From NCBI GenBank assembly GCA_964578995.1, contig CAZOEZ010000001.1, positions 19,627 through 83,626 on the forward strand: a stretch of 64,000 nucleotides of DNA. The letters are read 5' to 3'. Shown here piece by piece: positions 1,133 to 44,693 of the stretch. This stretch comes from an uncultured archaeon (GTDB lineage Archaea > Thermoplasmatota > Poseidoniia > MGIII > CG-Epi1). Below the pieces are notes generated by a model that saw only the letters and a program-made list of their open reading frames with translations, did no database searches and had not been told where the DNA came from. Made by a program: the position numbers and the translations under genes. Every line of letters starts with the position of its first letter. Positions within the stretch are counted from its first letter, which is position 1.

Positions 1133-2295
1133 GAGAAGTAAGCATAATAGGTATAGGCATTACAAAATTTGGAGAATTATGGGACAAATCTTTACGCCAG
1201 TTAGGGCTAGAAACAGGACTTGCCGCAATAAGCGATGCAGGAATTACGAGTAAAGACATTGACGCCTTGTACATAGGAAACATGGCTGCTGGATCAACAC
1301 TACAACAAGAGCATGTAAGCGCATTAATGGCTGATTATTGCGGTTTAGCAAGTCAGAACGTCCCAGCAACGAGGGTAGAGGCTGCATCGGCCTCTGGTGG
1401 CTTAGCAATTAGACAAGCATACATGGCTATTGCTGGAGGTTTCATCGATATTGCAGTCGTAGGTGGTGCTGAAAAAATGACTGACGTCAGCGATTCAGAA
1501 TCATCATATACTGTGAGCATGGGTTCAGATGAACAATGGGAATCTAAAGCAGGAGCAACATTTGCTTCCTTGCATGCAATGATGACTCAAAGTCACATGC
1601 AACAATATGGAACTACAAGAGAAGAAATGTCCGCTGTATCTGCAAAGAACCATTACCATGCCTCTATGAATCCGATGGCTCAGTTTCCATTTGCAATCAG
1701 CTCAGAGGCCGTATCTAATTCGGGACTTGTATCAAGTCCACTAAGAATGTTAGATTGCGCACCAAACAGTGACGGTGCGGCAGCCGTTGTCCTTTGTGCT
1801 ACAGAAAAAGCAAAAAAATATGGAAAAAAATCTATTCGAATCATAGGCTCAGGTCAAGCATCAGATACTTTGAGCTTACACCATCGAAAACATCTAAACC
1901 AAATGCCTGCGATTAGAGTGGCTGCAAAAAGAGCATTCAAAAGCTGTGGTAAAAAGGCAAAAGATATTGACCTTATTGAGGTCCATGATAATTTTACAAT
2001 CTCAGAAATTATAGCTTTAGAAGAAATAGGTATTTTCAGAAGAGGAAAAGCTGCAGCTAAAATACTAGAAGGTGAGACGAAACTAGGAGGAAAAATACCT
2101 ACAAACACGAGCGGTGGGCTAAAGGCCCGTGGACATGCGCCGGGCGCTACAGGAATAGCACAAGTAGTTGAAGTCGTACAGCAATTAAGAGGTGAAGCTG
2201 GTGACAGACAAGTTAAAGATGCAAAAATAGGTATGGTAGAAAATCATGGCGGTACTGCTGCTACGGCAGTCATACATATATTGGAAGGTGAATAA
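1129..2295 (+). CDS. acetyl-CoA C-acetyltransferase (acetoacetyl-CoA thiolase)
   Basis: 388 aa thiolase fold, with a C-terminal GHAPGATG motif. It overlaps the HMGCS stop by 4 nt (ATGA), which indicates translational coupling. Confidence 0.88.
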
Positions 2296-4743: not shown

Positions 4744-5555
4744 TATAATCTGACCTGTCCAAACTCATTTAATTTTTCAACTAAAGCGTCCATATCCTCT
4801 GATGTAGCCACAATAGATGTTCCTAAATGTGCAACAGACGAAACCGAACCAATTGGCATTTCATCAAGAATTTGTGATATATTGTCATTAACTAATCCTG
4901 ATTTTTCTGTAAAAAGGCGCCCTATTTTTATTGAAGATCTTATATTTGGTTCAGCAATCTGAATACCTAATGCTGCGGAATTAATAATCTCAATCCACTT
5001 TTCATCAGCAATAATCTTTGATGTATCACGACCTATTCCTGAAATGCAAACTGCAAATTTTTCACCAATAGAGAAAGATTGAGTTTCTCCCTTATACCCA
5101 GGAGTTTGTCTCACAACTATTGAGGGAAAAACACCAGTTCTTATTGATTCAGCTATAGCAACAACGTCTCCTAAACCTGTTCTGAATTCAACCTCAGCCT
5201 GATGAGAGGCCTTTACACATAAGTCAAGGTTCTTCTCTAATTCCATACATGCCGCTAGAGCTGAAGCACCAGAAATACCAAAACCTGAACCTAAAGGTAA
5301 ATCATGTCTAAGATAAACTGTTAGACCCTCGTCCTTAAAGCCAAGTAATTCTAACGCTCGTAGGGTAACTGAATCCTCCACTGAACTTCCACCCTTAACA
5401 ACTACATTATGTTTAATCTCAGATTGCTCCCTTACGACCGCACAGTGTACTCCCTGTGGTAAAACTATACCTACACCCGTAGAACCCATGGTCAACAAAT
5501 CTGAATCTGGCCAAATTGCAAAAGTTAAACTTATATGTCCCGGAGCAAAACTCAT
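4740..5555 (-). CDS. GHMP-family kinase, possibly pantoate kinase or an archaeal small-molecule kinase
   Basis: 271 aa with the GHMP motif [15 protein letters not shown] and a GTGLGD-like motif (RTGLGDVVA). The substrate cannot be assigned from sequence alone. Confidence 0.55.
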
Positions 5556-11970: not shown

Positions 11971-12987
11971 TTAATACGCTGATTTTGTTGTTGTTATGAT
12001 TACAGCTGCAATCTTGTACGGATCTCCATTTGACGATGGCCTACGATCTTCAAGCCTCCCCTTCCAACCATCTTCTACAGTACCAACAGGTATCCGAATA
12101 GAGGCACCCCTGTCTGAAATACCATATGAGAACTCATGAATCGACTGTGTTTCATGAAGGCCAGTTAATCTTTGCTCATTATGGGCGCCATAAACGTCCA
12201 TATGCTTCTTAATATTCTTTCCAAAAGCCTCACATACTTTATTGAAAACTTTTTCATCACCACATTTTCTTAGTGTGCCGTCTGAGAAATTTGCATGCAT
12301 ACCTGAACCATTCCAATCTGTAGCCCCTAGCGGTTTTGGATGCCATTCTATAGCAATACCATATTTTTCAGCATTTCTTTCAGCTAAATATCGAGAAACC
12401 CATATCTCATCACCTGCATTTTTAGCACCCTTCGAAAATATTTGGTATTCCCATTGACCCGCTGCCACTTCAGCATTAATACCTTCTACATTCAAACCAG
12501 CATCTAAACACTGGTCAAGATGATCTTCTATTATCTCCCTACCAAAAGTATTCTTTGCACCAACAGAACAATAGAATTGACCTTGAGGTGTTTGATCTCT
12601 TGGAAAACCTAAGGGCAAATCTGTCTCCGGATCCCAAAGGAAATATTCTTGCTCAAATCCAAACCAGAAATCACTGTCATCATCATCTATAGTGGCTCGG
12701 GCATTCGTAACGTGTGGTGTACCATCTGCATTGTAAACTTCATTCATTACTAAATAACCATTTTTCCTATCTGGATCTGGATATATTGCAACCGGTTTAA
12801 GGAGACAATCTGAATCATTTCCCTCCGCCTGTCTAGTAGAACTTCCATCAAATGACCAATCAGGACAGTCCTTTAATTTCCCTGAAAATTTATTTCGAAT
12901 CAACGTTTTACTTCTAAGACTCTGTGTTGGTTCAAAACCGTCTAACCAAATATATTCTAGCTTTGCCGTCTTACTCATAATAATCAT
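11971..12987 (-). CDS. glnA: glutamine synthetase, type II (eukaryote-like GSII)
   Basis: 338 aa, collinear with eukaryotic GS. Matching segments include EYIWLDG...LRSKT, WSFDGSSTRQAEG, FGFEQEYFL, AEVAAGQWEYQI, WNGSGMHANFS, RLTGLHETQSI, RGASIRIP and EDRRPSSNGDPY. Confidence 0.85.
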   Translation of the reverse strand: MIIMSKTAKLEYIWLDGFEPTQSLRSKTLIRNKFSGKLKDCPDWSFDGSSTRQAEGNDSDCLLKPVAIYPDPDRKNGYLVMNEVYNADGTPHVTNARATIDDDDSDFWFGFEQEYFLWDPETDLPLGFPRDQTPQGQFYCSVGAKNTFGREIIEDHLDQCLDAGLNVEGINAEVAAGQWEYQIFSKGAKNAGDEIWVSRYLAERNAEKYGIAIEWHPKPLGATDWNGSGMHANFSDGTLRKCGDEKVFNKVCEAFGKNIKKHMDVYGAHNEQRLTGLHETQSIHEFSYGISDRGASIRIPVGTVEDGWKGRLEDRRPSSNGDPYKIAAVIITTTKSAY

Positions 12988-25500: not shown

Positions 25501-27012
25501 TTAACCGAATTTTATGCCCTGTGCTAATGGCAATTCATCCGACCAATTAAGTGTATTGGTCTGTCTTCTCATATAAACCTTCCATGAATCTGAGCCGGCT
25601 TCTCGTCCACCACCTGTATCTTTTTCACCGCCAAAAGCACCACCTATCTCTGCTCCACTAGTACCAATATTAACATTAGCTATTCCACAATCACTTCCAG
25701 CATGTGATAGAAAATTTTCGACAGATTGCATGTCCCTCGTGAAAATAGATGACGATAAACCTTGATCTACTGAATTATGCATATTTATTGCCTCATCAAT
25801 AGTTTCAAATTCAAACAAATAAAGTATTGGTGCAAATGTTTCTTCTCTTGCAATTTCCATTTCCTTGTGTGCCTTCACAATGGTAGGTTCTACAAAGAAA
25901 CCAGAAACATCTATAGTTACACCTCCACAAAGTATTTCTCCCTTTTCTTTTTTAATAGTGTCCAAGGCATCAACAAAGTCATTAACTGCATTATTGTCAA
26001 CTAGTGGACCCATAACTGTCTTTGAATCCAAGGGATCTCCTATTTTTACTTGGGAATAGGCCTTGACTAAACGCTCAGTAATATCTTTTGCAATGCTCTT
26101 ATGCAAAAATAAACGCCTTGTAGTCGTACATCTTTGTCCAGTAGTACCTACAGCTCCAAAGACTACTGCACGCAGGACCAACTCTGGATCTGCATCAGGC
26201 ATTACAATTATCCCATTATTCCCACCTAATTCTAGTAAAGAACGCCCTAATCTTTTGGAAACAGCCTCTCCTATCTTACGACCCATGTTACAAGAACCTG
26301 TAGCTGAAACAAGAGGGACTCTACGGTCATGGATTAACATTTCTCCGACATCTCTGCTTGAACCAACTAACAAAGACATAACACCACTCCATCCCAACGG
26401 CTCCATTACACGATTGACTATTTTCTGAATCGCAAATGCTGTAAGTGGGGTTTTTGAGGAAGGTTTCCAAACCATAACATCTCCACACACTGCTGCAATC
26501 ATTGCATTCCATGCCCATACAGCACCTGGAAAGTTGAAGGCTGTAACAATACCTACAACGCCTAAAGGATGCCATTGCTCATACATCCTATGATTGGGGC
26601 GTTCAGAATGCATCGTTTTACCGTAAAGTTGCCGGCTAAGTCCAACTGCATAATCTGCAATATCAATCATTTCCTGAACTTCGCCTTCCCCTTCTGCTTG
26701 GATTTTACCCATTTCCCATGATATTAATTTGCCTAACGCTACCTTATGCTCGCGAAATTCATTAGCCAACAATCTGACTACTTCTCCACGCTTAGGGGCT
26801 GGTTCCATCCTCCATTTTTTGAATACGCGTGTAGTATCCTGCATTATCTTTTCATAATCTCCAGAATCGCACTGTTTGATGCTAGCAATTACGCTACCAT
26901 CTGCTGGCGTTACTGATTTCAGTTCACTTCCCGAACCTAACCATTCTGTTGAAAATCCACCTAAATTAAGGTCATCAATACCTAGCTCACTGAGAAAATC
27001 AAGCTTACTCAT
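25501..27012 (-). CDS. ALDH7-family aldehyde dehydrogenase (alpha-aminoadipic semialdehyde / piperideine-6-carboxylate dehydrogenase-like)
   Basis: Collinear with ALDH7A1. Matching segments: ELGGNNGIIVMPDAD, FGAVGTTGQRCTTTRRLFLH, ETFAPILYLFEF and SGAEIGGAFGGEKDTGGGREAGSDSWKVYMRRQT. The start is set at MSKLDFLSELGI. The track ORF extends to 27054. Confidence 0.85.
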   Translation of the reverse strand: MSKLDFLSELGIDDLNLGGFSTEWLGSGSELKSVTPADGSVIASIKQCDSGDYEKIMQDTTRVFKKWRMEPAPKRGEVVRLLANEFREHKVALGKLISWEMGKIQAEGEGEVQEMIDIADYAVGLSRQLYGKTMHSERPNHRMYEQWHPLGVVGIVTAFNFPGAVWAWNAMIAAVCGDVMVWKPSSKTPLTAFAIQKIVNRVMEPLGWSGVMSLLVGSSRDVGEMLIHDRRVPLVSATGSCNMGRKIGEAVSKRLGRSLLELGGNNGIIVMPDADPELVLRAVVFGAVGTTGQRCTTTRRLFLHKSIAKDITERLVKAYSQVKIGDPLDSKTVMGPLVDNNAVNDFVDALDTIKKEKGEILCGGVTIDVSGFFVEPTIVKAHKEMEIAREETFAPILYLFEFETIDEAINMHNSVDQGLSSSIFTRDMQSVENFLSHAGSDCGIANVNIGTSGAEIGGAFGGEKDTGGGREAGSDSWKVYMRRQTNTLNWSDELPLAQGIKFG

Positions 27013-27090
27013 ACAACCCTTATTTAATGGCAAAATAAAGAGCTTAGCATGCACTGTTCATTTTTAATCGGACCCTTAATTCAGAGTACA

Positions 27091-27762
27091 ATGTCGGAAG
27101 CGAGACCTGAACTTCAAGGATACGACCAAGAACAAATTGAAATGATGAAGGAAGCTTGTATCCTTGTGGATGAAGAAGACAACATACTGGGAAAAGATAC
27201 TAAAATTAATTGTCATCTAGGTGAAGGAAAACTTCATCGAGCGTTTAGCATTCTTTTATTCAATAATTCTGGTAAATTATTAATTCAGAAAAGAGCTTCA
27301 GAGAAAATAACATTCCCCTCTATTTGGGCAAACAGTTGTTGTAGCCACCCTCTCCATATTGATTCAGAAGTAAATGGAATTGATGGTGCTAAGACAGCTG
27401 CTAAAAGAAAGATGGAACAAGAGTTAGGTATTGAATCTGAACAAATAAAACTAGAAGAGCTTAAGTACATTACTAAAATGGTGTACAAAGCCAGAGCAGA
27501 TGAAAAGTGGGTTGAACATGAAATAGATTATATCTTTGCAATAAAATGTGATCTTGATATTAACCCGAATAAAATTGAGATTGAAGAAACAAAATACGTC
27601 AACTTAGAAGAATTGGAGACTTTATTTAGTGACAAAGAGGCCAAAATAGGCCCTTGGTTCAGATTAATAAAGGAAAACTTTTTGAATGACATTTGGAAGG
27701 CTTTGGATAACTTAGGTGAAATAGGCGACAATAAAATACACCATATGGGAAATTGTGAATGA
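27091..27762 (+). CDS. idi: isopentenyl-diphosphate delta-isomerase, type 1 (Nudix fold, eukaryote-like)
   Basis: Collinear with IDI1. Matching segments: CILVDEEDN, HRAFSILLFNNSGKLLIQKRASEKITFP, NSCCSHP, WVEHEIDYIF and PWF. The start is set at MSEARPE. The track ORF starts at 27049. Confidence 0.85.
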   Translation: MSEARPELQGYDQEQIEMMKEACILVDEEDNILGKDTKINCHLGEGKLHRAFSILLFNNSGKLLIQKRASEKITFPSIWANSCCSHPLHIDSEVNGIDGAKTAAKRKMEQELGIESEQIKLEELKYITKMVYKARADEKWVEHEIDYIFAIKCDLDINPNKIEIEETKYVNLEELETLFSDKEAKIGPWFRLIKENFLNDIWKALDNLGEIGDNKIHHMGNCE

Positions 27763-28739
27763 GTTTAAAGAAAAAAATAGCAGTTAAAGCAGAGCCGATA
27801 GAAAAGGCACTTAGAGAATACCTGAAAATTAGAGAGCCAAGAAAACTTTACGATGCGACTGCACATATTCCATTAGCAGGAGGTAAAAGATTGAGACCTG
27901 TTATGGCACTCATAACTTGTGAAATGGTGGGTGGAGACGCTGAAAAAGCAGTACCCTTTGCTACTGCTTTAGAAACTATACATAATTTCACCCTTGTACA
28001 CGATGATGTAATGGACGATGATGATCTTAGACATGGTGTAGATGCGTGCCATACAATATATGGATTATCTACAGCAATACTCGCTGGTGATACACTTTTT
28101 GCATATGCTTTTGAAATGATAACTGATTGTGATATTGATGATGAAATAAAAGCAGACTTGGTTAAAAATGTAGCATATGTTGTAAGAAAAATTGCTGAAG
28201 GACAGCAAATGGACATAAATTTTGAAGAGGAAGAAACCGTAGATGCAAAAGAATATTTAGAAATGATACGGCTGAAAACCTCTATCCTCTTTGGGGCTGC
28301 AGCGTATGGTGGAGCTAAAATAGGCGGAACTAGTGAAAAAGAAGCAAGAAAACTTGAAGAAATGGCTACAAATGTTGGCCTAGGTTTTCAGATTTGGGAT
28401 GATTATCTCGATGCAACTGCCTCCGAAGAAATTTTAGGTAAACCATCTGGTTCAGATATACGGCAAGGCAAAAGAACATTATTAGTTATCGAAGCATTAA
28501 ATCGAGCTGAAGAAAGTGATCGTAAAAGACTCATAGACATTTTAGATTCCAAAAATACAGATAAGCAAATAAAAGAAGCTGTAAATATAATGAATCGATC
28601 TGGGGCATTAGAAGAATGTCATAAACAAGCAAATGAATATTTGGAAGACGCCCGAAAAACGTTGTCAGACTATCCCCAAAGCGAAGCGCGTGAATTATTT
28701 GAAGAACTATTGAAATATATGGTTACAAGAGGACATTAA
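27759..28739 (+). CDS. idsA: short-chain (E)-prenyl diphosphate synthase, GGPP synthase type
   Basis: 326 aa with FARM LVHDDVMDDDDLRHG and SARM GFQIWDDYLD. It overlaps the idi stop by 4 nt. Confidence 0.85.
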   Translation: MSLKKKIAVKAEPIEKALREYLKIREPRKLYDATAHIPLAGGKRLRPVMALITCEMVGGDAEKAVPFATALETIHNFTLVHDDVMDDDDLRHGVDACHTIYGLSTAILAGDTLFAYAFEMITDCDIDDEIKADLVKNVAYVVRKIAEGQQMDINFEEEETVDAKEYLEMIRLKTSILFGAAAYGGAKIGGTSEKEARKLEEMATNVGLGFQIWDDYLDATASEEILGKPSGSDIRQGKRTLLVIEALNRAEESDRKRLIDILDSKNTDKQIKEAVNIMNRSGALEECHKQANEYLEDARKTLSDYPQSEARELFEELLKYMVTRGH

Positions 28740-28780
28740 ACTACCTAATCACGTATATACTGGTTACAAGTAGGACGAAT

Positions 28781-30199
28781 ATGGGGGATTCTGAAAGCTC
28801 ATGGAGCTCTACCGTAATTAATGAGCAACTCCGTAAAAGGCTTGAATCACACAAGTCTGCAAAAGTTACTAACTTGGATTCGCAGCCCTGTATTGCTGTT
28901 AACATGCCATCTGGAAAAAATTTAACCTTTGATGGTGAAGCTGGCGATAATTTTGGAGGATTCAATAATGGAACAAATATTGTCCTAAATGGTGACGCAG
29001 GAAGATTTGTTGGAAACGGAATGAGTAAAGGTGAAATTATCGTAAATGGTAATTGTTATGATGGTGTTGGGCATTGTTTGTCAGGTGGTACTGTTGTAAT
29101 ACAAGGTTCAGTAGAGGGAAGTGCAGGACCTTCAATGAAGGGCGGTGATCTGATTATCTCAGGGAATATTCAAGGAGATTTAGCCACCTGTATGAGTGGT
29201 GGAAATCTAATTGTTTGTGGAGATGTTAGAGGAGATATAGGAAGAATGATGAGTGGTGGAAGAGCATTTATTTCAGGTGATTTCAATGATAATGAAAATC
29301 TAGAAACCAAGAATATAGCCCCAACTGATTGGAAAGCTATTCAAAAAACTCTCAGAGACTATGGTGTTGATCCTAATGGATTAAATTTTAAAACAGTTAG
29401 TGGAAAATTCAAACACAAAAAACTGCGAAAAGAAAAAACTGAGGATTATTCTATTGGTGATACATTAATGCTAGTTTATGCCAAACTCAGTAGAAGACCA
29501 AGAACTGTTAATCTGGATGATTTAGACTTTTCACTATCAATTGGAAATAATAAAGAACAACCACTGAATCTAACTATTCCATTATTATGGACTGGTAATA
29601 ATGCACCAATTTATTCAACGTGGGGAATAAATGAAAAATTTCCTAGTAATTTAGATTCAGCTAATATGGCTATAATCGATTTGAGTGCCACTGAAATAAA
29701 TCGAAGATTGGATATGAGAAGGCCAAACGACTTGGCTTTTGTTGTAGAATTAATCAGACAAAGTACTGCCAAAAGAATACCAATTATGGTTAGACTGGGT
29801 GCGGGTGACGTAGAAAATGACTTGAAAATAGTGGCAAAATCCGGGGCCGAAGGTGCAATTTTAACAAGTCGAGAAATGCCTCTCGAAGCTGCTGTAACTA
29901 CAGCAAGAAATTACAGAGAAAAACTTATTGTCTTAGCATCATGTCAAACATTAGATTATGAAATGGCTACTAAACTTATGGCTTTAGGAGCCTCGGGCCT
30001 ATTTTTTGAAGGTGATTGTACAAATGAGAGGCTGAAAACTTTCGGAATGAAGTTATCAGAAACTATTGGGTCTTTAGGTATTGGAAATATACGAGATTTG
30101 AATCCTGAAAACCTTAGAACAAACAATCAAGATACGGCAGCAATGACTGGCGTCCCAATAGCTGGATACGATTCTGTACTGCCTATGTGGCGTCACTAA
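28781..30199 (+). CDS. protein with a GXGXG-motif domain (glutamate synthase domain 3 / FwdC-like) fused to a degenerate GltS FMN-domain-like C-terminal half
   Basis: 472 aa. Repeated G-x-G-x-G beta-helix motifs fill residues about 50-170. The C-terminal half resembles the GltS FMN domain (IPIMVRLGAGDVENDLKIVAKSGAEGAIL, ALGASGLFFEGD) but lacks the GGTGA active-site motif. Confidence 0.55.
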   Translation: MGDSESSWSSTVINEQLRKRLESHKSAKVTNLDSQPCIAVNMPSGKNLTFDGEAGDNFGGFNNGTNIVLNGDAGRFVGNGMSKGEIIVNGNCYDGVGHCLSGGTVVIQGSVEGSAGPSMKGGDLIISGNIQGDLATCMSGGNLIVCGDVRGDIGRMMSGGRAFISGDFNDNENLETKNIAPTDWKAIQKTLRDYGVDPNGLNFKTVSGKFKHKKLRKEKTEDYSIGDTLMLVYAKLSRRPRTVNLDDLDFSLSIGNNKEQPLNLTIPLLWTGNNAPIYSTWGINEKFPSNLDSANMAIIDLSATEINRRLDMRRPNDLAFVVELIRQSTAKRIPIMVRLGAGDVENDLKIVAKSGAEGAILTSREMPLEAAVTTARNYREKLIVLASCQTLDYEMATKLMALGASGLFFEGDCTNERLKTFGMKLSETIGSLGIGNIRDLNPENLRTNNQDTAAMTGVPIAGYDSVLPMWRH

Positions 30200-31353: not shown

Positions 31354-33936
31354 TTAAATTTCTCCTTCTAAACCACATTCTGAACACTGAATTTGCTGCG
31401 TGCCAGAAATTTTAGGAATCTCCATATGTGCTGAACATTCAGGGCATTCAATGGTCATAGTCTCCAGAGGTGGTAGAGTTGCAGACTTAACTACTTTCCG
31501 AACTCTGCGTTCCTTTACAGGAGAAACTTCAGGAACAACCGATTCCATGAACCCAGATCCTGAAACAGGTTCGGGTTTAGCTGGTGGCTCATATGGTAAA
31601 GAATCATCCCGTCTCATATAGAAAACTGCACCTGCTATTCCTATAACTAACAGTAATCCTGCTCCTGCAATCAAAGGAATTGGCAATTCAGATTCAGATT
31701 TATCTCCTGATGGGGATTTTCCATTATTAGGTGTGGAATCGGCTACTATCGTGACCGTACAGGTATCTCTAGCAACGAGCCCATCATTATCAGTTACTCT
31801 AACAACTACTAAAAATGATGAATCAGGTGGTGTGTAATTATAGGAATGTACTGCAGTGCTTGAACCTTTAAAATCAACGGAATCGATATCTCCTGTAGTA
31901 CTATTGAAATCCCATTCATACAATACTATCCGCCCTCCTCCTTTATCACTAGCTAGCGCTGTGAACAATAAGTCATCCTCAAGTACCGCTTCTTCATCAC
32001 ATATTGCTGATACTATTGGTGGGGAAAGTATTTGAATGCTAATAGTAATAGACTCACTTGAAGCCCCTAATGAATCTGTAACCGTGAGATAAACATCATG
32101 CTCTCCAATATCTGCATCTGTAGTCGATACACTAGAACCATTATCAGAACTCTCATACAAATTTTGGCCATTGGCAAACAACAAAGACTCAGTTGTCCAA
32201 ATATAACTCAAAAGATTACCATCTGGATCTGTAGCATCTCCGAATAAAATAACACTATCACCAGCCACTACTGGATTAGGATTAACATCAACAGAACTAA
32301 GAACAGGAATGCCATTAATCAATACATTAGCTGTAACATTAGATGACCAAAAACCAATATCATTTATTGCTCGGAAAGTTATTGTGTGTTCACCTCTCGA
32401 TAACTCAGAGGTAGTAAATGTTGATTCCTCGGAAAGTTCACCATCTAAGCTAGAAAGCCACTGATATCCTATTACTTCAGTATCTTCTGAAGCTTCGGAA
32501 ACGGCTGAACCATTAAATTCAATAGATTCTCCCTCACTAATGACACAATTAGAAAATGATAAGCAGCCTGTGATAGAACCTATGCTTGCCTCCGGAAAGT
32601 CACCAATACCAATATTCATTGTTGATAATTTGCTCCAGCGACCTTCATTGTCTCTTGCGCTAAACGATATGACGTGATAACCCATACTCAGATTAGATAT
32701 TGTAAAATTAGATTCAAGAGATAAATTTCCATCAATATCTGAAGACCATAAATATTCCTCAATAGAACCATCCGAATCAATAGCTGAACCTATCATAGTA
32801 ACGGGTGTGTTAGGCAATGCCGTTGTTGGATTTATAGACTCAATATTTGCTACCGGTGCCTGATTGTCTAATTGACGTTCATAATAAATTGCTAAACCGT
32901 TTGAAGTACCTACTACTATATTTTCCCCACGATAAGACATTGCAACACTAAGAACATCTCCAAAGGCAGATATTCGCCACAATTCATCGCCATTTGATAC
33001 ATTAGCTAAAACTAATTTTTTGTTAGTTGAACCTGCAATCAGATACTTTGCATTTCCATTGAAATCAATTTCTGTAATTATGCCTCCAATATTTTTGTCC
33101 CATGCCTTAAATTCAGTAGACAAGTCAAGAACTGTGACTAAGCCTTGATCAGTTCCAAATGCATAATAATTCGAATCAAAACTACCGGAAACGCAAGTAA
33201 CTTCATCTTCTTGTCCCCATTCCAAAACAGGAGTGTCTCCCTCTGATTCATAAACATAAACTTTACCATTCTCAGAACCGATAATTAGATAATTACTATC
33301 ACCTGAAAAATCAAGACCTGTTATTTTACCGTCCAGAGTTCCTGAATGATACCATGATGCTGAAGAACTTGAGGTATTATAAACATATACATTACCATCT
33401 TCCGTTCCCGATGCAATATATTGATGATTTGGAGATATTGCAACAACAGTCATAGTATCACTTGCGTGATTGTCAACCCATATTCTATCATCTGAATTAG
33501 TGTTGAAATAGTATACATTTCTAAAATCGCTAACGGCTAAATAATTGCCATCAGGCGTCATATCAAGATCAACAACACTCAAGAAAAAATCGGTCTTTTC
33601 CCAATTTTTTGAACCTTCTTCCCACAAAGTCACAGTCGTATCTGTTTCTTCAGCAGTTACAACAAAACGGCCGTCTGAAGACATATCCATTGCCGAAATA
33701 CCCTGACCTACTGTTTTTGTATTATATGGGCTAGAAGTATGATTTCGCCAAAGTGAAATACTTTTCGCATAGGTTGCAGATACATTAACAGAATCATCAG
33801 ATATAGCTACTGCAGATATTCCAGATGATGTAGAATATTCCCAAAGTGGTTCCTTTTCAGCCTCAGCACTTGAAAAGACACACGTAAAGGCGACTAGCGT
33901 CAACATTACTAAACTTATTTTTTTCATTGGGAACAT
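31354..33936 (-). CDS. cell-surface protein: beta-propeller (PQQ/WD40-like) repeats plus PKD/Ig-like domains, a C-terminal TM and a cytoplasmic C4 zinc ribbon
   Basis: 860 aa with a signal peptide. It has repeated NVYVYNT and KVYVYESEGD propeller blades, Ig-like domains, the TM LLLVIGIAGAVFY, and the tail CPECSAHMEIPKISGTQQIQCSECG. Confidence 0.6.
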   Translation of the reverse strand: MFPMKKISLVMLTLVAFTCVFSSAEAEKEPLWEYSTSSGISAVAISDDSVNVSATYAKSISLWRNHTSSPYNTKTVGQGISAMDMSSDGRFVVTAEETDTTVTLWEEGSKNWEKTDFFLSVVDLDMTPDGNYLAVSDFRNVYYFNTNSDDRIWVDNHASDTMTVVAISPNHQYIASGTEDGNVYVYNTSSSSASWYHSGTLDGKITGLDFSGDSNYLIIGSENGKVYVYESEGDTPVLEWGQEDEVTCVSGSFDSNYYAFGTDQGLVTVLDLSTEFKAWDKNIGGIITEIDFNGNAKYLIAGSTNKKLVLANVSNGDELWRISAFGDVLSVAMSYRGENIVVGTSNGLAIYYERQLDNQAPVANIESINPTTALPNTPVTMIGSAIDSDGSIEEYLWSSDIDGNLSLESNFTISNLSMGYHVISFSARDNEGRWSKLSTMNIGIGDFPEASIGSITGCLSFSNCVISEGESIEFNGSAVSEASEDTEVIGYQWLSSLDGELSEESTFTTSELSRGEHTITFRAINDIGFWSSNVTANVLINGIPVLSSVDVNPNPVVAGDSVILFGDATDPDGNLLSYIWTTESLLFANGQNLYESSDNGSSVSTTDADIGEHDVYLTVTDSLGASSESITISIQILSPPIVSAICDEEAVLEDDLLFTALASDKGGGRIVLYEWDFNSTTGDIDSVDFKGSSTAVHSYNYTPPDSSFLVVVRVTDNDGLVARDTCTVTIVADSTPNNGKSPSGDKSESELPIPLIAGAGLLLVIGIAGAVFYMRRDDSLPYEPPAKPEPVSGSGFMESVVPEVSPVKERRVRKVVKSATLPPLETMTIECPECSAHMEIPKISGTQQIQCSECGLEGEI

Positions 33937-37004: not shown

Positions 37005-37862
37005 GTGAAACTGGTTTTAAAGGGAGCTTTATTTGACATAATAATGAAGCGGCTTTTAGGACTAATTGTGATGATTGCTCTGCTCTCACAACCTTTGGTC
37101 AAAAGTGAAATAGATAGTTATGTAAGCTATCCTGGTAATATTCCTGATTTTCACAATTTCAGTACTCCTCAATTAGAACCTGGAGAAAACGGTGATTTCA
37201 GTTTAAATGTTCTTAATCGTTATAATGAAACTCTGGAAAATGTGATTATCGAGGCTGAGATTTATCATAGGGCTGACATAGATGAATCAGAATCATTAGG
37301 TAATATCCCTAGCAAGGAAAGACCATACATTAGCAATACAAAATGGGCATCAAATCTAGATGAAACAGAAACGTCCCAAGAAACAAGTGATACCAAAAAG
37401 GCGACTTATGATGTCGGCGAGTTCGAATCTAATGAGACTATAACACTAGAATTCAGAATTAATACTAAAGAAGATACAAAAGAAGGCACGTATTTTGTTA
37501 AATTTTCAATGAATTTTGTACATAACGATACCGAAAGACAAATGCAATCAAGAGGGCATTGGAGCATGGAACTTTGGGAAAATGCAACGACCGATGTACC
37601 AGAAGGATCTCCAGGAAATATCAACCTAGATGTTTTGGGAGTAGATGGAATAATACCTGATTCTTCATTTGGAGTCAAGAAACCCATTCCAAAATGGCCA
37701 CTATATCTTCTGATTACACTTACTATTGTTTTTGCAGGTCTTTCTGTAGTCTTTTACCTAGAAGAAGAGGGAAACTATCCTGAACTAAATAAATGGCTTC
37801 AGAAGCAAAGGGGCAAACTTAACGAGCTTAGGTTGCGCTTTAAGTACAGAAAAGGCAGCTAG
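37005..37862 (+). CDS. secreted hypothetical protein with a C-terminal TM anchor
   Basis: 285 aa. The likely start is at MKRLLGLIVMIALL (about 37044). A C-terminal TM LYLLITLTIVFAGLSVVFYL is present. The 3' end overlaps the convergent GGR gene. Confidence 0.4.
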   Translation: MKLVLKGALFDIIMKRLLGLIVMIALLSQPLVKSEIDSYVSYPGNIPDFHNFSTPQLEPGENGDFSLNVLNRYNETLENVIIEAEIYHRADIDESESLGNIPSKERPYISNTKWASNLDETETSQETSDTKKATYDVGEFESNETITLEFRINTKEDTKEGTYFVKFSMNFVHNDTERQMQSRGHWSMELWENATTDVPEGSPGNINLDVLGVDGIIPDSSFGVKKPIPKWPLYLLITLTIVFAGLSVVFYLEEEGNYPELNKWLQKQRGKLNELRLRFKYRKGS

Positions 37863-38963
37863 AGAAGCATAATCTAAATCTCCTGTTTTCTCTATTGCTT
37901 CTTTAACTTTGGGTTCCCCCAATATTGAAATTATCTCTGATAATTGATTGTCTGTTAAACTCAAAAACGCTCGTCTAAGGTGATACCCCTTAGACAACTC
38001 ACCGCCAATTCTCTGTTTCAAGAGTGATTGGTAAGGGCTCAAAGTTTTGGAGTCTAGCTTTCCTTTCTGAAACGCTTTATCAGCAACCTCAAAAGCGGCA
38101 TCAGCCGAAATTAAACCAGAATAAATCCCACCACCAGAAGTAGGTTTGGCCATGCCTGCAGCATCACCTGTTAAAAGTACATTATCTGCATAACTAGGTT
38201 CTCTTATACCAAAAGGAATAAGGCCACTAACACGATTTACTATTTTTGCCCCACCAAGCAATTTTGAGGGTGCTCCTTTATGAAAATAGTCTCTGAAGAA
38301 GTTCTTAGGACGGTCCGGGAGAACAGTAGCCATCCCAATTCTTCCCTCGTTAGGACCTGTGGGGATACCCCAACCAAAAAAACGAGGCGCTAATTCTGAA
38401 CCAACAAAGAGATCAACATGATTGTCTCTACCTTGATAACCTTCAACATCAGCTCCAAAGGCTGCCAAAACTTCTCTTTTACTGCTAAGACCTGCATCAC
38501 GAGCTACACGAGAAGCAGGACCATCTGACCCGATTAAGAGGCGCGTCTCAAGCTCAATTTTCCCATTCTTACTTTGTATCGTAGCTATTATCCCATTTTC
38601 TGACCTACGGTGACTAAGGTACCTGTGACCTTCCCTCAAATCCACACCTGCTTCTACAGCCTTATTGGCAATAGATCTATCCAAATCTGGCCTATCAATT
38701 ACTAGAGCTTTAGTCTCAGAGGCTTGGAAATCTAAGAATGAATCGTTAGGACCCCATAACCGAGCACCGTTCATTTCTTGAAGAATAGGACGTTTATAGC
38801 CTAAATAATCAAAGGTACGGGGCGTGATCAAGCCGGCACACTGACAAGGTTCGCCTACTCGCTCATGCTCTTCGACTAAGACTGTTGAATAACCTGCTTG
38901 CGCTAGGTTCCAAGCTGTTCTAGACCCGCTAGGGCCTGCCCCTATGACTAATGCATCAAGCAT
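37785..38963 (-). CDS. geranylgeranyl reductase family FAD-dependent oxidoreductase (archaeal lipid saturation)
   Basis: 392 aa with an N-terminal Rossmann fold LDALVIGAGPSGSRTAWNLAQAGYSTVLVEE and a GGR-like PCQCAGLI motif. Confidence 0.8.
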   Translation of the reverse strand: MLDALVIGAGPSGSRTAWNLAQAGYSTVLVEEHERVGEPCQCAGLITPRTFDYLGYKRPILQEMNGARLWGPNDSFLDFQASETKALVIDRPDLDRSIANKAVEAGVDLREGHRYLSHRRSENGIIATIQSKNGKIELETRLLIGSDGPASRVARDAGLSSKREVLAAFGADVEGYQGRDNHVDLFVGSELAPRFFGWGIPTGPNEGRIGMATVLPDRPKNFFRDYFHKGAPSKLLGGAKIVNRVSGLIPFGIREPSYADNVLLTGDAAGMAKPTSGGGIYSGLISADAAFEVADKAFQKGKLDSKTLSPYQSLLKQRIGGELSKGYHLRRAFLSLTDNQLSEIISILGEPKVKEAIEKTGDLDYASLAAFSVLKAQPKLVKFAPLLLKPFI

Positions 38964-38972
38964 TATGCCTTA

Positions 38973-41900
38973 TTACTCGAGGGGGACTAAATCTATTTGG
39001 CAGCTATCTGTCAACCCAGCATCTGCTAATGATAAATTAACATCTACTGACGCTCCATTGAGCATAACTGCAAAATTTGAATGTGGTAATTGGAACTTAT
39101 CAATACAATTCTGCAACAATTTGTTAACAGGCATATTAGAAGGCACCTTGACATTTGCAGTCTTACCATCTACTGTGGATACTATAACAACTCCAATCTT
39201 AGAAGGTACTCCTTCATCGGGTTCGTCAATTTGACCATCACCATCATTATCTTTGCCATCTGATCCTTGAATACGAGCTCGCCTTCTTCTGACAATTGGA
39301 ATTGCGACCATCATAATCACTAGTCCAACTCCTGCCAAGAATGGCCAGAGTAATGGTACTCCCTTAATCAATTCTCTTTCCTGCAAGTCTGAAATGAATT
39401 CAATTTCTCCAAGAACTGCAGGCAATACCAGAGGTATAGTTTCCATATGCTCATCATTATCTGTGCCACCGCCTAAGATAGACTCATCACAAGTATTACA
39501 TTGATTTATTTCAAAACTACCACTTCCAGCATCAATAGTAAAAGTCAAATCAAGTTCATCCTTATTATCCTCATCTGGAACAGTCCAAGTGAATTTTACT
39601 TCAGTTGTATCTCCTTCGTTAATTGATTCACCTACTGAACTAGTTAATTCAGTACCTGTACCATCCTCAAACACAACAGTTAACGGTTTACTACTAATTT
39701 GCCAATCTGCATTACCTATATTCTCCAAAGTAACCGTTATCTCAACATCTTCTCCAACCTCAGGATTACGCGGATCCATTGCAACTTTCTTAATTTTGAA
39801 ATCTGGTAATATTTCGAATTTTACTTCTTTACTACTCTGTTCGAACACACCGGAACGTGGATACTCATTGTCTGTATAACGACCTAATTCGTCAAACATG
39901 CGATCTGTCTCGCCTGAAAAACCATCACCATCTGATTCACATTCGAAGTCTTGTATATTGTAATCGTCACAAATTGGATTGACTTCAGCTCTGAAAGTAG
40001 TCCATTCTTCCTCTGTTGCCTTCCAACGGAATCTTACATCTGTTGTTTCACCTGCATCGACATCAAAGTCAACATAATCTTTGTTTGTACGATCCTTGAG
40101 GATTTCATTATCTGCACTGCTATCTGCTGTGATATACAACCGAGCGCCCTGAACATCTGCAGCTCCAGTATTACTTACAGTAACTGTGAACGTTACAATA
40201 TCATCAACATTTGGTGTCTGTGCACTAGAACCTGCATATTTGGTATCTACTCTCATTGCATCTATAGCAAGATCAGGTTTTACTCTTAATAATTCCGAAT
40301 AACGTGCATCATTATTGTTCTCATTAGGTTCAAGTATCTCTCCATTATCGTTATCCTCATCATAATCTGAACGAACTTCGACATACCATTCTCCACCCTC
40401 AATCAACCAATCATCCGAAGCAACAGTCTTTTGGTTATTGGACTTGATATTCGTTGTCTTGTCATAAAGTGACTTGATGTATCCCTTTGCTTCATCCAAC
40501 TCAAAACCAGCTATCATCAATGCGTCAATCTCATTTTGGGTTTCAGGTGATTTCTTAGGATAATAGAAAATCTCAACACGGACGTCATCTGCATCTGCAG
40601 TACCTATATTCTCAACATCAACTAAGATAACAACGGTGTCTCCATCCTGAACCTGAGAAGCATTACCTATTGCACCATCAATCTCTAAGAGAATATTAGA
40701 TTGTTGAATAGTAAGTTCGGGCCTCTGCACAATTACAGTTAATGTAAGATCTTGAGTGGCACTAGGGTCGTCCTCTTCATCTCTAACTGATATCTGTATG
40801 GTGTAATTACCTTCGTCGGCTTCATCGGCAACTTCAACAAACACCCAAAGATCATCAAGCTCACCATCTTCAATAGATAGACCTGATGTTGTTGACCACG
40901 GTGAAGATTTAGAGCTGTCCTGCCAGTAAGTAACTTCCCAATCATCGTCTAGTGTGGAGACTGTTTCAGGTATGAATATATCTGGATTAGACCCTGTATT
41001 ATCCAATTTAACCTTAAATTTTACACTATTCTTCGTAGCTGAACCCTCATATTCAGGATAAATTTCCTGAACAAGATCAATAGCTGTAGCTGCCAAACTC
41101 CTTGTTGGAGCTGCAATATTGATTGTAACAATTGTAGTACTCTGTGTTTCTTCTTCAGCGTTTCTGACGGTGATAGACATAGTATAATTACCTTCATCGA
41201 CCACATCTGCATCTACTTCAGCAATAAACCAGAGTGATTTACTTTGATCTTTCTCTAAAGCTTGACCCGTAGCACTCCATTTATCGCTTGAAGAACCTGG
41301 ATTACCTGAATTCTTTGTAAAGAAATCTGATTCCCAACCAGAACCGAGAACATTGTCTAATTCTGCTGTAAATTTATCGTCGTGTGAACCTGTGTTAGTT
41401 ACAGTAATCTTGAAACGAGCTGTGTTCTTTTCTTCATTGTCTATTTCAGGAGATAAAGTAACTTCTTCTTCACCTGATGTAACTGATAAAGTTACTGCAC
41501 GTATTGGTTCTCTTACATCCAATGTAGTTTCTGCTTGAACCGCTGGTTCTGCTCCATTACCTGCAGATGCCTCAGTAATAACTGTGTAATTGCCAGCCTC
41601 TGAATCCACATCCGGTGTTATACAAAGATAAAGATATTTTGATTCTCCTGCACCAATGCTACCTGAGAAACTACCGCTTGAACATGAAGCAGAAGTGAAT
41701 ATAGAAACTGTCCACTCATCAGGATATGACGTAGCAACTGTTTCAACATTTACATTATCGTTTCTGTTACCTGTATTGACCAATTTGAGAGTGAATTTCT
41801 CTCTACGATCGTTTGCACTATCTTCTGTTGAAGGATAAGTAATAAGTGTATCACTACCAACTACTGTAAGACTAGCGCCATAAATCTGACCTATCTCTGT

Positions 41901-44693
41901 TGTCAATGTAGTAATCGCACTCTGTGCTAAATCACCAGCAGATTTTGCCTTAACCTGAAATTCATACTCAGCGGACGAGTCTTCAAGCGCGTCTCTTTCT
42001 TGAGCTGATAAGTTGTCTAAATCATATTCTGGTAATGCACAAGTTATGGTTATAGTTGCAGTGGCATCCTTTGCTAATTCAACTTCTGCAGGATTTGCTG
42101 TTACCCAATTAAGGTTATCTGAAAGTATAGATATCAAAATTGTATCCGTACCATCTCCTGTATTCTTAACATCTACACTGAAAACAGCGGAAGAACCTGG
42201 AATCTTCTCAATGGCCACTACATCTGCATTAATCTCGACACCGCGAGAAAGCTCAACTTTAACTGTCAAAGTTAAAGCGTCCTGTGATTTAGTTCCGTTC
42301 GCACAATCATCACAATTGGAAACTCCTGAAACATTTACAGAATAATCACCTTTTTCAGTTCCCTCTGGAACTGTTATTGAAAGCCCGACTAATCCTGTCT
42401 TCCCTTCCTGAACATTAAGGAAAGATGTGTTGAATTCTAGGGCAGTCCATCCAGACGGTGCTGTAACGGACATTGCAACAATATCATCTCCTGTTCCCAA
42501 ATTTTCTACACTTATAGATACGCTAACTGGAGTTCCAATAATTGCATCTACAGTACTGGAATCAACTGAAAGATCAATCCAATATTCTTGGTTAACAATA
42601 GTTGTAACGGCTACTGTAGTATTGACCCACTTTGGTGGATTTTCATCGGCTGCACCGAGTGAAGATGCTGTAATATTAGTCGTAAATGCCTGATTTTGCT
42701 CACCGGAAGGAATAGTGATAGTCAGATTAACTGTCTTTTCACTACCGGCAGCAACATCTTCGACATACTCTGATTCAAGTTGAACTATCCAATTTACAGG
42801 ATAATCATCAATCGAAAGTTTGAAAGAATCGGAACCAGTACCTTTGTTCTGTACCCTCATAGGATATATCAATTCAGAACCAGGATCTCCAGCCTTAGAA
42901 GAAACAATCATGTCAACTTTATACTGCTTATTTACAGAAACTGTAACTGAACTAGTATCATAAGCTGATGAAGAATCTTCTGAAGTTCCATTAACAGTTA
43001 TTATATTGTCACCAACGACTGCGTCTTCATCAATATTCACGGTCAGATTAACAGTTGTGCTTTCACCCTGCTCTAAATCTACATCTTCAACAATTGATCC
43101 CCAAGAGGCCATCTCTCCTTCAAGAGATAATGCAACTGTATCATCTGAATTACCTTTATTCTTTACTGTAATTGAATAACTTAATTGATCGCCGGGATCT
43201 CCTGATTGAGTTGTATCCCCTGAAACAGAAACAGATACTTCATAAATCTGATTAACGTTAAGAAAGACATCACGGTATTTACTAGTAGTTGCATCCTCTG
43301 ATGTCGCCTTGATAGTTATTTTATATCCATTTTGAGCCGATGTATCCTCTGGTGCTGTAACTCTCAAAGTTGTTGTTGTATTTGCTCCAGCTGCGAGGGT
43401 AAATGATGATTCACCTAAAGTACCCCAAGTAGCATTTAAACCTGTTAGAGACAATGAGATTTCATCTTCTCCATTGCCCTCATTTTCAATTGTTAAATTA
43501 TAAGTCACTTCGATTTCAGGATTGGCAGACTGGGTATCTCCACCAACAATCGTAATTTTTGGATCATAGTTTTGCAATACTGTTGAACGCGATGTAAATG
43601 TTTTGAAAACTGAAGTGTTCTCTTGTGACGATACCTTAACCTGTATAGTAGCAACAACATCTGCTGCCGCATCCTGTGGTGCCTTAACAACCAGTACATC
43701 TGTCAAAGTGATATTCTCATCAACACCAAGACTACTTACCTCATCATTGTCCAAAGAAGCTTCCCAACCTGTTGGTACACCGTCAGTGACTACAGACAAG
43801 TCAAAAGAGTCAACCGCATTACCCTTATTTGTCACCTTAAACGAATAATATACGCGCTTTCCAGCCTCAATATCCTGCGCACTAGAACCTACCTTTGTAA
43901 CCTCAAGTGCAGGCAATTGATTAACACGAACTGTAACTGAAATCGAATATGCCGTCTCCCCATCCTCTGAATTAGCATAGAAATTTATACTTTTCAATCC
44001 TGCAAGAGCTTCGATGTCTGGTGTAACACTGAAAGTAACTGTTGCTGATTCATCTTGATCTAAACTTACTGAACCTGGGAGCGTAAACGACCAATCGCTA
44101 GTACCAACTGAATCTTGAGAAAATGTTATGGTATCTTCAGTATTTCCTTTATCATTGACAACTGTAATCGAAAAAGTTGCATCATTATTAGGATCAACAC
44201 TGATTTGTGTTGTTCCTGCTGACAGTGAATTTCCATATATTTTCTTAACTTTAGAACTACCTGCTGCAGTTTCGTTATTGCTAGATTCTCCTGCTGACTG
44301 ACAATATACTGTAAATTGTTTAGTTTGACCGCCTTCTGCATTAGTCCTATTTCCTATCTCAACATAAAGTGTAACTGTTCCTGTAGATTCGTCACTAATA
44401 CTAATCTGGCTAGGAAGAATATACATTTCCCATCCTGTCGGAATTGTTGATGACATTCCTAAATTATATGTGTCATCTTCTGTACCATCATTATCGATTG
44501 TTACTGTATAAGTTAGTGTGTCTTCAGGTTCACCTTCTTGTTGTGTAGGAGATATTGTAACTGCATGTTCATAATCTACAGCCACAGCTCCGCCTGAGAT
44601 TAATACACAGAATAAACCTGCCATGACAAATGTCAAGGCGATTGCTAGCCAATTGGTTTGGTTTAAGCTCATTGCTATTTCCATCCATTTCAC
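38973..44693 (-). CDS. giant cell-surface adhesin-like protein (about 15 CARDB/DUF11-type Ig-like domains) with a C-terminal TM and a ubiquitin-like cytoplasmic tail
   Basis: 1906 aa with a signal peptide. It has recurrent V-x-N-x-G-x-x-x-D modules (ITVKNKGNSDDT, VDVKNTGDGTD, VDVENIGTADADD and others). The TM is LLWPFLAGVGLVIMMVAIPIV, followed by RRRR and a 75-aa beta-grasp-like tail. Confidence 0.7.
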   Translation of the reverse strand: MKWMEIAMSLNQTNWLAIALTFVMAGLFCVLISGGAVAVDYEHAVTISPTQQEGEPEDTLTYTVTIDNDGTEDDTYNLGMSSTIPTGWEMYILPSQISISDESTGTVTLYVEIGNRTNAEGGQTKQFTVYCQSAGESSNNETAAGSSKVKKIYGNSLSAGTTQISVDPNNDATFSITVVNDKGNTEDTITFSQDSVGTSDWSFTLPGSVSLDQDESATVTFSVTPDIEALAGLKSINFYANSEDGETAYSISVTVRVNQLPALEVTKVGSSAQDIEAGKRVYYSFKVTNKGNAVDSFDLSVVTDGVPTGWEASLDNDEVSSLGVDENITLTDVLVVKAPQDAAADVVATIQVKVSSQENTSVFKTFTSRSTVLQNYDPKITIVGGDTQSANPEIEVTYNLTIENEGNGEDEISLSLTGLNATWGTLGESSFTLAAGANTTTTLRVTAPEDTSAQNGYKITIKATSEDATTSKYRDVFLNVNQIYEVSVSVSGDTTQSGDPGDQLSYSITVKNKGNSDDTVALSLEGEMASWGSIVEDVDLEQGESTTVNLTVNIDEDAVVGDNIITVNGTSEDSSSAYDTSSVTVSVNKQYKVDMIVSSKAGDPGSELIYPMRVQNKGTGSDSFKLSIDDYPVNWIVQLESEYVEDVAAGSEKTVNLTITIPSGEQNQAFTTNITASSLGAADENPPKWVNTTVAVTTIVNQEYWIDLSVDSSTVDAIIGTPVSVSISVENLGTGDDIVAMSVTAPSGWTALEFNTSFLNVQEGKTGLVGLSITVPEGTEKGDYSVNVSGVSNCDDCANGTKSQDALTLTVKVELSRGVEINADVVAIEKIPGSSAVFSVDVKNTGDGTDTILISILSDNLNWVTANPAEVELAKDATATITITCALPEYDLDNLSAQERDALEDSSAEYEFQVKAKSAGDLAQSAITTLTTEIGQIYGASLTVVGSDTLITYPSTEDSANDRREKFTLKLVNTGNRNDNVNVETVATSYPDEWTVSIFTSASCSSGSFSGSIGAGESKYLYLCITPDVDSEAGNYTVITEASAGNGAEPAVQAETTLDVREPIRAVTLSVTSGEEEVTLSPEIDNEEKNTARFKITVTNTGSHDDKFTAELDNVLGSGWESDFFTKNSGNPGSSSDKWSATGQALEKDQSKSLWFIAEVDADVVDEGNYTMSITVRNAEEETQSTTIVTINIAAPTRSLAATAIDLVQEIYPEYEGSATKNSVKFKVKLDNTGSNPDIFIPETVSTLDDDWEVTYWQDSSKSSPWSTTSGLSIEDGELDDLWVFVEVADEADEGNYTIQISVRDEEDDPSATQDLTLTVIVQRPELTIQQSNILLEIDGAIGNASQVQDGDTVVILVDVENIGTADADDVRVEIFYYPKKSPETQNEIDALMIAGFELDEAKGYIKSLYDKTTNIKSNNQKTVASDDWLIEGGEWYVEVRSDYDEDNDNGEILEPNENNNDARYSELLRVKPDLAIDAMRVDTKYAGSSAQTPNVDDIVTFTVTVSNTGAADVQGARLYITADSSADNEILKDRTNKDYVDFDVDAGETTDVRFRWKATEEEWTTFRAEVNPICDDYNIQDFECESDGDGFSGETDRMFDELGRYTDNEYPRSGVFEQSSKEVKFEILPDFKIKKVAMDPRNPEVGEDVEITVTLENIGNADWQISSKPLTVVFEDGTGTELTSSVGESINEGDTTEVKFTWTVPDEDNKDELDLTFTIDAGSGSFEINQCNTCDESILGGGTDNDEHMETIPLVLPAVLGEIEFISDLQERELIKGVPLLWPFLAGVGLVIMMVAIPIVRRRRARIQGSDGKDNDGDGQIDEPDEGVPSKIGVVIVSTVDGKTANVKVPSNMPVNKLLQNCIDKFQLPHSNFAVMLNGASVDVNLSLADAGLTDSCQIDLVPLE

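Follow-up and report, generated by a model that had tools for sequence, protein, structure and literature searches.

A GXGXG β-helix joined to a reduced glutamate-synthase-type barrel is encoded behind idi-idsA in marine Poseidoniia archaea

Marine Poseidoniia archaea carry a gene, here named gene X, whose product joins a GXGXG β-helix to a reduced barrel that is related to the FMN domain of archaeal glutamate synthase. Both Marine Group III and Thalassarchaeaceae (MGIIb) have gene X fixed directly downstream of idi-idsA. It is best described as a degenerate form of a domain pair that was already known. The reading that we favor, with a probability of roughly 0.6, is that gene X is specific to its lineage and descends, without the cofactors, from the archaeal GltB domain 3 and domain 2 module, and that its product is a pseudoenzyme that binds or scaffolds, possibly in connection with isoprenoid supply.

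The large subunit of archaeal-type glutamate synthase includes, as separate pieces, GltB domain 3 (GXGXG) and domain 2, which comprises a 2x[4Fe-4S] ferredoxin and an FMN barrel (PF01645). These pieces are encoded by separate adjacent genes or are fused, as in the protein P0157. Gene X is similar to them in that it has the two domains, in the same order, with profile homology of both halves. However, it has no ferredoxin domain, its barrel is about 160 residues shorter, no amidotransferase partner lies nearby in the 64-kb window (the whole stretch of DNA that was analyzed), and its product cannot make glutamate. The positions of gene X, of its segments and of its neighbors are listed in Table 1.

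Table 1 Features of gene X and of the genes upstream of it, in positions of the 64-kb window.
Feature	Position	Strand	Description
ALDH7-type dehydrogenase	25501..27054	-	NF050084 L-piperidine-6-carboxylate dehydrogenase, 766 bits (cutoff 730); divergent
idi	27091..27762	+	type-1 (NUDIX) isopentenyl-diphosphate isomerase; TIGR02150 177.9 (cutoff 105.8); 4-nt overlap with idsA
idsA	27759..28739	+	short-chain trans-polyprenyl diphosphate synthase; PF00348 E 3e-70; directly upstream of gene X
Upstream element	28744..28768	+	CCTAATCACGTATATACTGGTTACA; TATA box 28754-28759 (TATATA), 27 nt before ATG
Gene X	28781..30199	+	472 aa; GXGXG β-helix and degenerate GltS-FMN-type barrel
N-terminal module, aa 1-195	28781..29365	+	helix aa 10-23, right-handed β-helix aa 26-178, capping helix aa 181-193
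Interdomain linker, aa 209-228	29405..29464	+	Lys-rich; pLDDT about 55; mean column identity 0.35, lowest in the protein
Reduced TIM-type barrel, aa 229-459	29465..30157	+	homologous to archaeal GltB domain 2 (FMN domain)
C-terminal tail, aa 460-472	30158..30196	+	IAGYDSVLPMWRH; mean identity 0.86, highest in the protein

The gene X protein and its β-helix

Homologues of gene X (n=89), nearly all of 470-472 amino acids, come from marine Poseidoniia archaea. The loci taken from species-representative genomes (n=42) belong to MGIII CG-Epi1 and CG-Bathy1, to Candidatus Poseidoniia and to Thalassarchaeaceae (44-47 % identity), and the genomes nearest to the window are Marine Group III / Candidatus Poseidoniia MAGs. 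The window has a G+C content of 35-41 % and is archaeal, with genes for Kae1/Bud32, an archaeal ArsR (PF09824), LonB and Pus10. In public databases the members are named 'hypothetical protein' or, for some members named by JGI, 'glutamate synthase domain-containing protein 3'. A literature search on GXGXG and archaeal glutamate synthase, on Poseidoniales isoprenoid genes and on MGIII glutamate synthase returned nothing on this family. Poseidoniales also have a second paralogue with a length of about 524 amino acids, between GAPDH and pheT.

Both domains of gene X are under strong purifying selection. Measured against a 92 %-identical orthologue (L012), the dN/dS of the gene is 0.095, with values of 0.053 for the helix and 0.107 for the barrel, which is comparable to that of the neighboring idsA (0.064) and idi (0.124). 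The AlphaFold model of the protein has a pLDDT of 86.7 and a pTM of 0.85.

The sequence-only reading had described the N-terminal half as a GXGXG domain, and this is borne out by a match to PF01493 (GXGXG) over aa 41-172, with 56 bits against a Pfam cutoff of 32.5, and by the fold of the module, which is a right-handed β-helix like those of GltS domain 3 and FwdC. The ten or more GxGxG turns proposed in that reading were not found; the literal G-x-G-x-G string is absent, and the β-helix consists of about 6.5 coils with a 19-residue repeat (aa 41-173). By sequence, FwdC is a closer relative of the β-helix than GltS domain 3 is. FwdC, FmdC and FhcC are the β-helix subunits of the formylmethanofuran dehydrogenase and formyltransferase/hydrolase complexes. 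Gene X differs from them, as its scores are below the cutoffs of their models (70.9 against 130.65 for TIGR03122, and 55 bits against 340 for NF042910), its β-helix is fused to a GltB-type barrel, and the fwd/fhc context is absent, with no fwd or fhc genes found near gene X.

Conservation is unevenly distributed along the rest of the protein. In the barrel, the mean identity is 0.82 for β1, 0.82 for β3 and 0.70 for the RR.D loop, while the second half of the barrel, formerly the FMN phosphate side, has a mean identity of 0.45-0.6. At least 90 % of the aligned members conserve a set of residues that includes D300, R308, R309, D311, R338, E369 and R376; these would be at or near strand ends and β-α loops, as placed by the order of secondary structures in the model and not by coordinates. 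The C-terminal tail (AGY....P.W) is modeled with low confidence, the pLDDT dropping from 68 to 39. It is common to distant relatives and is the hallmark of a wider 'LPMWxH' subfamily, described below. A tail that is conserved and of low model confidence fits a docking peptide.

Descent and reduction of the barrel

The C-terminal half of the window protein gave no match in Pfam with the threshold relaxed to E<=10, and no meaningful match in NCBIfam. PF01645 (Glu_synthase) gave weak matches in 5 of 14 members of the family, the best with an E of 7e-6. A phmmer search of this half against the PDB returned HisF-LUCA alone (E 0.75), and Foldseek against the PDB assigned it to the FMN-barrel/IMPDH superfamily but did not tell IMPDH, GltS, IDI-2 and glycolate oxidase apart, each having an E of about 1e-5. 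A profile made from the C-terminal halves of the 14 family sequences (profile A2) matched, in the PDB, flavocytochrome b2 (29.8 bits, E 3e-6), glycolate oxidase and, weakly, IDI-2 (1p0k, 17.1 bits); bacterial GltS was not matched there.

When profile A2 was searched against 1.84 billion representative proteins, 349 matched at E<=1e-3. Of these 349, 57 that are among the nearest distant relatives were aligned (A3). Glu_synthase (PF01645) was found in 45 of the 57, with a best E of 1e-141, FMN_dh in 34, and GXGXG as well in 18. Six proteins that have the canonical GGTGA motif (P0165, P0167, P0171, P0195, P0196 and P0210) scored 62-76 bits with profile A2, and P0157, which has PAGTGASP instead of GGTGA and matches Glu_synthase with an E of 1e-120, scored 81 bits. 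These scores of archaeal GltB domain 2 (62-81 bits) far exceed those of the PDB barrels. Furthermore, hhalign of profile A2 against eight canonical archaeal proteins with Fer4 and GltB domain 2 (A4) gave a probability of 99.5 % and an E of 3e-23 over 241 columns, among them those of the N-terminal PAQLSRPP segment, which is specific to GltB, and of the LRAL..TG..L.G tail. Features common to gene X and archaeal GltB domain 2 are the PAQLSRRP segment, an RHxD-type motif, the PIxV(K/R) strand, the KxLALGA helix and the LRAL..TG..L.G tail. The C-terminal half is thus, by these profile comparisons, truly homologous to the FMN domain of archaeal-type GltS, although it falls outside the curated family model, and the proposed alignment to the GltS FMN/TIM-barrel domain is supported. 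An origin of the barrel from FMN_dh or IDI-2, as the PDB profile matches had indicated, was dropped because archaeal GltB domain 2 scores much higher in the 1.84-billion-protein search and in hhalign.

The degeneracy of the barrel was read from the multiple alignment and from hhalign. The canonical archaeal GltB domain 2 has the motifs AMSfGALS, NTGEGG, QYssGRFGV, EIKIGQGAKPGmGGhL, SPsRHlD, PIxVKL, DGmEGGTGAAP, GGxRxGxDxxKAlALGAD, GCxxCxxCxxGxCPxGIATQ and the LRAL..TG..L.G tail. The Poseidoniia family has three deletions. The first, of about 105 residues between β1 (LTIPLLW) and RRLD, takes out the substrate/FMN region with MSfGALS, GEGG, GRFGV and KIGQGAKPG. The second is the 15-residue GGTGA loop, the GGTGA(A/S)P site that follows the strand 'D..i.vDG'. 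The third, of roughly 38 residues, is the Fe-S Cys loop (GCxxCxxCxxGxCPxGI). In addition, the FMN phosphate loop GGxRxGxD is replaced by SCQTLD in gene X (family consensus ILAxxxxLD), the His of RHxD is Arg, and the Lys of VKL is R338. The only cysteines in the barrel of gene X are C388 and C413, neither of which is conserved across the family.

The gene X protein thus appears, from these alignments, to be without FMN, Fe-S and 2-oxoglutarate sites and to be trimmed to a minimal barrel. The loss is deeper than the degenerate C-terminal domain first described, and the FMN and Fe-S ligands, whose conservation was checked by alignment, are missing. It had also been proposed that MPLEAA stands in the place of GGTGA; GGTGA is indeed absent, but MPLEAA pairs with the 'GIPtlaA' segment just after the GGTGA loop, the loop itself being deleted. 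Because the substrate/FMN region, GGTGA and the Cys loop are deleted and GGxRxG is replaced, gene X could not be a component of a glutamate synthase, in agreement with the sequence-only reading, which doubted that it is an amidotransferase component and offered a possible structural or regulatory partner in its place.

Outside Poseidoniia, the nearest relatives of gene X (E 1e-34 to 1e-10) are GltB-domain-2-like proteins with the 'LPMWxH' tail, for example P0097, P0099 and P0109, and the fused P0100, P0116 and P0133. Like gene X, this intermediate subfamily has the C-terminal GY..LPMWxH tail, lacks GGTGA, and has a GXGXG partner that is fused or directly upstream. Unlike gene X, its proteins are still recognized by the Glu_synthase model of Pfam (E down to 1e-62), the aligned members keep the region from β1 to RHLD and, in most, the Cys loop, and their genes do not adjoin idi-idsA. 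On sequence grounds, a graded series is formed by canonical GltB domain 2, this intermediate subfamily, and gene X as the fused, reduced end. At two of six loci of intermediate relatives there is a B12-radical-SAM neighbor, which is not Tes-like by NCBIfam.

The sequence-only reading regarded the fusion as reversed and unusual. However, the GXGXG gene is directly upstream of the domain-2-like gene in all four stand-alone relatives, and the same order is seen in fusions, namely P0157, a GXGXG-2xFer4-Glu_synthase protein, and the further GXGXG-Glu_synthase fusions P0100, P0116 and P0133. GXGXG before the FMN domain is the normal archaeal order, as in gene X. No amidotransferase gene was found near these four stand-alone intermediate relatives.

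Genomic neighborhood and promoter

Gene X follows idi and idsA on the same strand. The longest ORF of idi begins at 27049, but the start at 27091 is favored by the lengths of the homologues (221-223 aa) and by a TATA-like box. The best NCBIfam matches of the idsA product are IdsA and GGPP synthase, both under their equivalog cutoffs. It has a Phe at position -5 from the first DDxxD motif, and it probably makes GGPP. The placement of gene X 41 bp after a GGPP synthase, in the same orientation, was confirmed as 41 nt from the stop codon of the polyprenyl synthase. Other isoprenoid genes in the window encode HMG-CoA synthase, thiolase, a GHMP kinase and a geranylgeranyl-reductase-like flavoprotein. 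The window also contains a GlnA-like gene.

When co-occurrence was checked in other genomes, gene X was found directly after idi-idsA in every case. The order ALDH(-) / idi(+) idsA(+) X(+) is present in 39 of 39 species-level genomes that have upstream sequence, and these loci span gene X identities of 35-96 %. The genes downstream of gene X vary; one clade has an insertion of 1.7 kb there, and in another clade DAO/lipA replaces the membrane-protein/ArsR pair. Gene X diverges the fastest of the block, Idi included; its lowest identity is 35 %, compared with 66 % for IdsA and 75 % for ALDH.

An intact GltB domain 1/2 partner was sought both in the 64-kb window and in four related loci, and none was found. 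A scan of 38 large ORFs from the 64-kb window gave no match to Glu_synthase or GATase_2, a tblastn search of the window with canonical and intermediate GltB domain 2 queries returned gene X only, and the Pfam lists of gene calls from the four related loci contained no further GltB-like or GATase_2 gene.

The sequence upstream of gene X is also conserved. Of 35 distinct orthologous loci, 27 have an element, CCTAAT..C(C/G)TAAATAC.GGTYACA, with its TATA box (TAAATA) at -27 (+/-1 or 2). TATA boxes at similar distances precede other genes in the window, such as PEPCK. These sequences suggest that gene X has its own promoter and a leaderless mRNA. The remaining eight loci form a clade with 67-79 % identity. 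In them, the stop codon of idsA is 1-5 nt before the start codon of gene X, and since there is no spacer between them, idi-idsA-X is a true operon in this clade. The 41-nt spacer of the window has no T-run terminator, so that read-through from idsA into gene X is possible. As gene X has its own TATA box in most lineages, that of the window included, its co-regulation with idi-idsA is not required.

Possible role and significance

The gene X product would do no redox or amidotransfer chemistry, and it would act as a binding or scaffolding pseudoenzyme. By analogy with GltS and the Fwd/Fhc complexes, the rigid β-helix may buttress the barrel. Conserved residues with a charge in the first half of the barrel (D300, R308, R309, D311, R338, E369 and R376) make up one candidate site for a ligand or a partner, and the conserved, flexible AGY....P.W tail is another. 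Judged from the position of the gene, the most likely process would be the supply or hand-over of isoprenoid diphosphates, from IPP/DMAPP to GGPP; the reasons for this are the fixed position and the operon arrangement in one clade. However, the whole four-gene block is syntenic, including the unrelated ALDH, so that the adjacency may reflect slow rearrangement and not a shared function.

In falling order of likelihood, the rival explanations are coincidental synteny, a neo-enzyme, a relic of IDI-2, and a working GOGAT subunit. The first, which we judge possible though unlikely, is that gene X serves another process and adjoins idsA because the block was never broken. This agrees with the conserved promoter that gene X has of its own in 27 of 35 loci, with the equal synteny of the unrelated ALDH, with the occurrence elsewhere of homologous two-gene modules in varied contexts without isoprenoid genes, and with the location of the Poseidoniales paralogue of about 524 aa between GAPDH and pheT. 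On the other hand, idsA and gene X were kept together while the downstream genes were reshuffled at least twice, and the spacer was wholly removed in one clade, giving an operon.

The many conserved Arg, Asp and Glu residues of the barrel could reflect a new catalytic site as well as a scaffold. Gene X would then be an enzyme with a new, cofactor-independent active site for a (di)phosphorylated substrate of isoprenoid or lipid metabolism, an explanation that we find improbable. The seven charged residues named above are conserved in at least 90 % of the aligned members, and the dN/dS of gene X is as low as that of the neighboring enzymes. Marine Group II/III archaea have a membrane-lipid pathway with gaps, including no recognizable G1P dehydrogenase (PMC6962369), and these unexplained gaps in lipid synthesis also speak for this explanation. 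However, R308 and D311 (RR.D) are inherited from the canonical RHxD and are not newly evolved; the second half of the barrel, where phosphate-binding loops are normally found, is the least conserved in the barrel; and gene X diverges faster than the adjoining enzymes. There is, in the same vein, a slim prospect that the trimmed, cofactor-free barrel now binds or converts intermediates of the isoprenoid or glycerol-phosphate type, as a newly acquired role, and that it forms with idi-idsA a lineage-specific module of the membrane-lipid pathway of Marine Group II/III.

It is very doubtful that gene X is a relic of the type-2 IPP isomerase (IDI-2), an FMN-dependent TIM barrel, left after a type-1 idi was acquired. 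Gene X is close to idi, and one family member matches TIGR02151 (E 2e-6). The window protein has no match to this model, its similarity to IDI-2 is in the fold alone, and the FMN-binding loops are absent from it. The same family profile gives 62-81 bits with GltB domain 2 and 17.1 bits with IDI-2, the hhalign match to GltB domain 2 (E 3e-23 over 241 columns) includes GltB-specific segments, and the fusion partner, GXGXG, pairs with GltB and not with IDI-2. The barrel of gene X descends from GltB domain 2.

That gene X is a working subunit of an FMN-dependent archaeal glutamate synthase or related oxidoreductase with partners elsewhere, as the JGI name of some members and the GlnA-like gene in the window might be taken to indicate, is hardly credible and already contradicted, as every defining motif is deleted or replaced, the Cys cluster is absent, and neither the 64-kb scans nor the four related loci contain a GltB-like or GATase_2 gene.

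As a cofactor-less descendant of the GltB module, gene X bears on three aspects of the biology of these archaea. If members of its family were counted as GOGAT, nitrogen assimilation in Marine Group II/III would be misjudged. Its invariant place behind idi-idsA in abundant uncultured ocean archaea makes it a candidate accessory factor for isoprenoid supply, although this is only a lead. Finally, the family would represent the graded reduction of an FMN/Fe-S module to a pseudoenzyme under strong selection, with the intermediates still present in today's metagenomes.

Related modules and paralogues

X is the fusion of a GXGXG β-helix with a degenerate barrel of the glutamate-synthase FMN type. 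The pairing of a GXGXG protein with one resembling GltB domain 2 is a widespread archaeal module, which occurs as two genes or as a fusion (loci L008, L009, L054, L055 and L011). The GltB-domain-2-like partner has no GGTGA motif and ends in GY..LPMWxH, and the Cys loop is mostly retained in the aligned members (P0097, P0099, P0100, P0109, P0116 and P0133). No amidotransferase gene is present in the neighbourhood of the module loci. A B12-binding radical SAM gene of 530–550 aa follows the module in two of the six loci examined, and Na+/H+ exchanger genes lie close to it in three.

Candidatus Poseidoniales have a second paralogue, made of GXGXG plus barrel and as degenerate as X, which sits between the genes for GAPDH and pheT. 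No gene for this paralogue was found upstream of pheT (53711) in the window. In the β-helix of X, cysteines 37, 92, 99, 137 and 146 are all kept within the MGIII clade, and more distant clades have Ala, Gly or Ser in their place.

Features of the window and of compared loci
Feature	Location	Strand	Size or protein
Isoprenoid/lipid genes other than idi-idsA	window 86-2295	+	
	window 4740-5555	-	
	window 37785-38963	-	
Glutamine-synthetase-like ORF	window 11971-12987	-	338 aa
Type-1 idi, longest ORF	window 27049-27762	+	
Element upstream of X	window 28744-28768		25 nt
Very large ORF	window 31354-33936	-	860 aa
Very large ORF	window 38973-44693	-	1906 aa
Second paralogue, Poseidoniales	L006 8001-9581; L007 5228-6808		about 524 aa; P0085, P0112

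Other genes of the window

The IPP isomerase of this archaeon is of type 1 (NUDIX); the FMN-dependent type 2 enzyme is the form found in most archaea. The longest idi ORF is probably over-extended at its 5' end, and a start at 27091 agrees with the lengths of homologues and with a TTTTTAAT box located about 25 nt upstream. Further isoprenoid/lipid genes within the 64 kb comprise an HMG-CoA synthase-like gene, a thiolase, a GHMP kinase and a geranylgeranyl-reductase-like FAD protein.

The glutamine-synthetase-like ORF is short, and its match to Gln-synt_C, a profile of 344 positions, is limited to the first 155. Related loci differ in the two very large ORFs. The smaller protein has a signal-like sequence at its N-terminus, and in L001 and L002 the relatives that occupy its position have matches to PKD-domain families.

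Binning of the compared loci

Two versions of the syntenic idi-idsA-X locus, L046 and L047, occur in one MGIII CG-Bathy1 MAG (MIYU01). Their X proteins are 96% and 36% identical to that of the window, and the presence of both versions in one MAG points to a mixed bin. The contig of L036, labelled Pirellulaceae, is probably mis-binned, since this locus is 100% identical at the protein level to an MGIII locus.

The element upstream of X

The element CCTAAT..C(C/G)TAAATAC.GGTYACA, with a TATA at -27, recurs among loci L012-L052 at about -37 to -13 relative to the X start. It is kept across lineages despite an identity of only about 45–60% between the X proteins. Because it contains a direct repeat, CCTAAT / CCTAAAT, the element may be something beyond a simple TATA box, with a possible role as a regulator-binding site.
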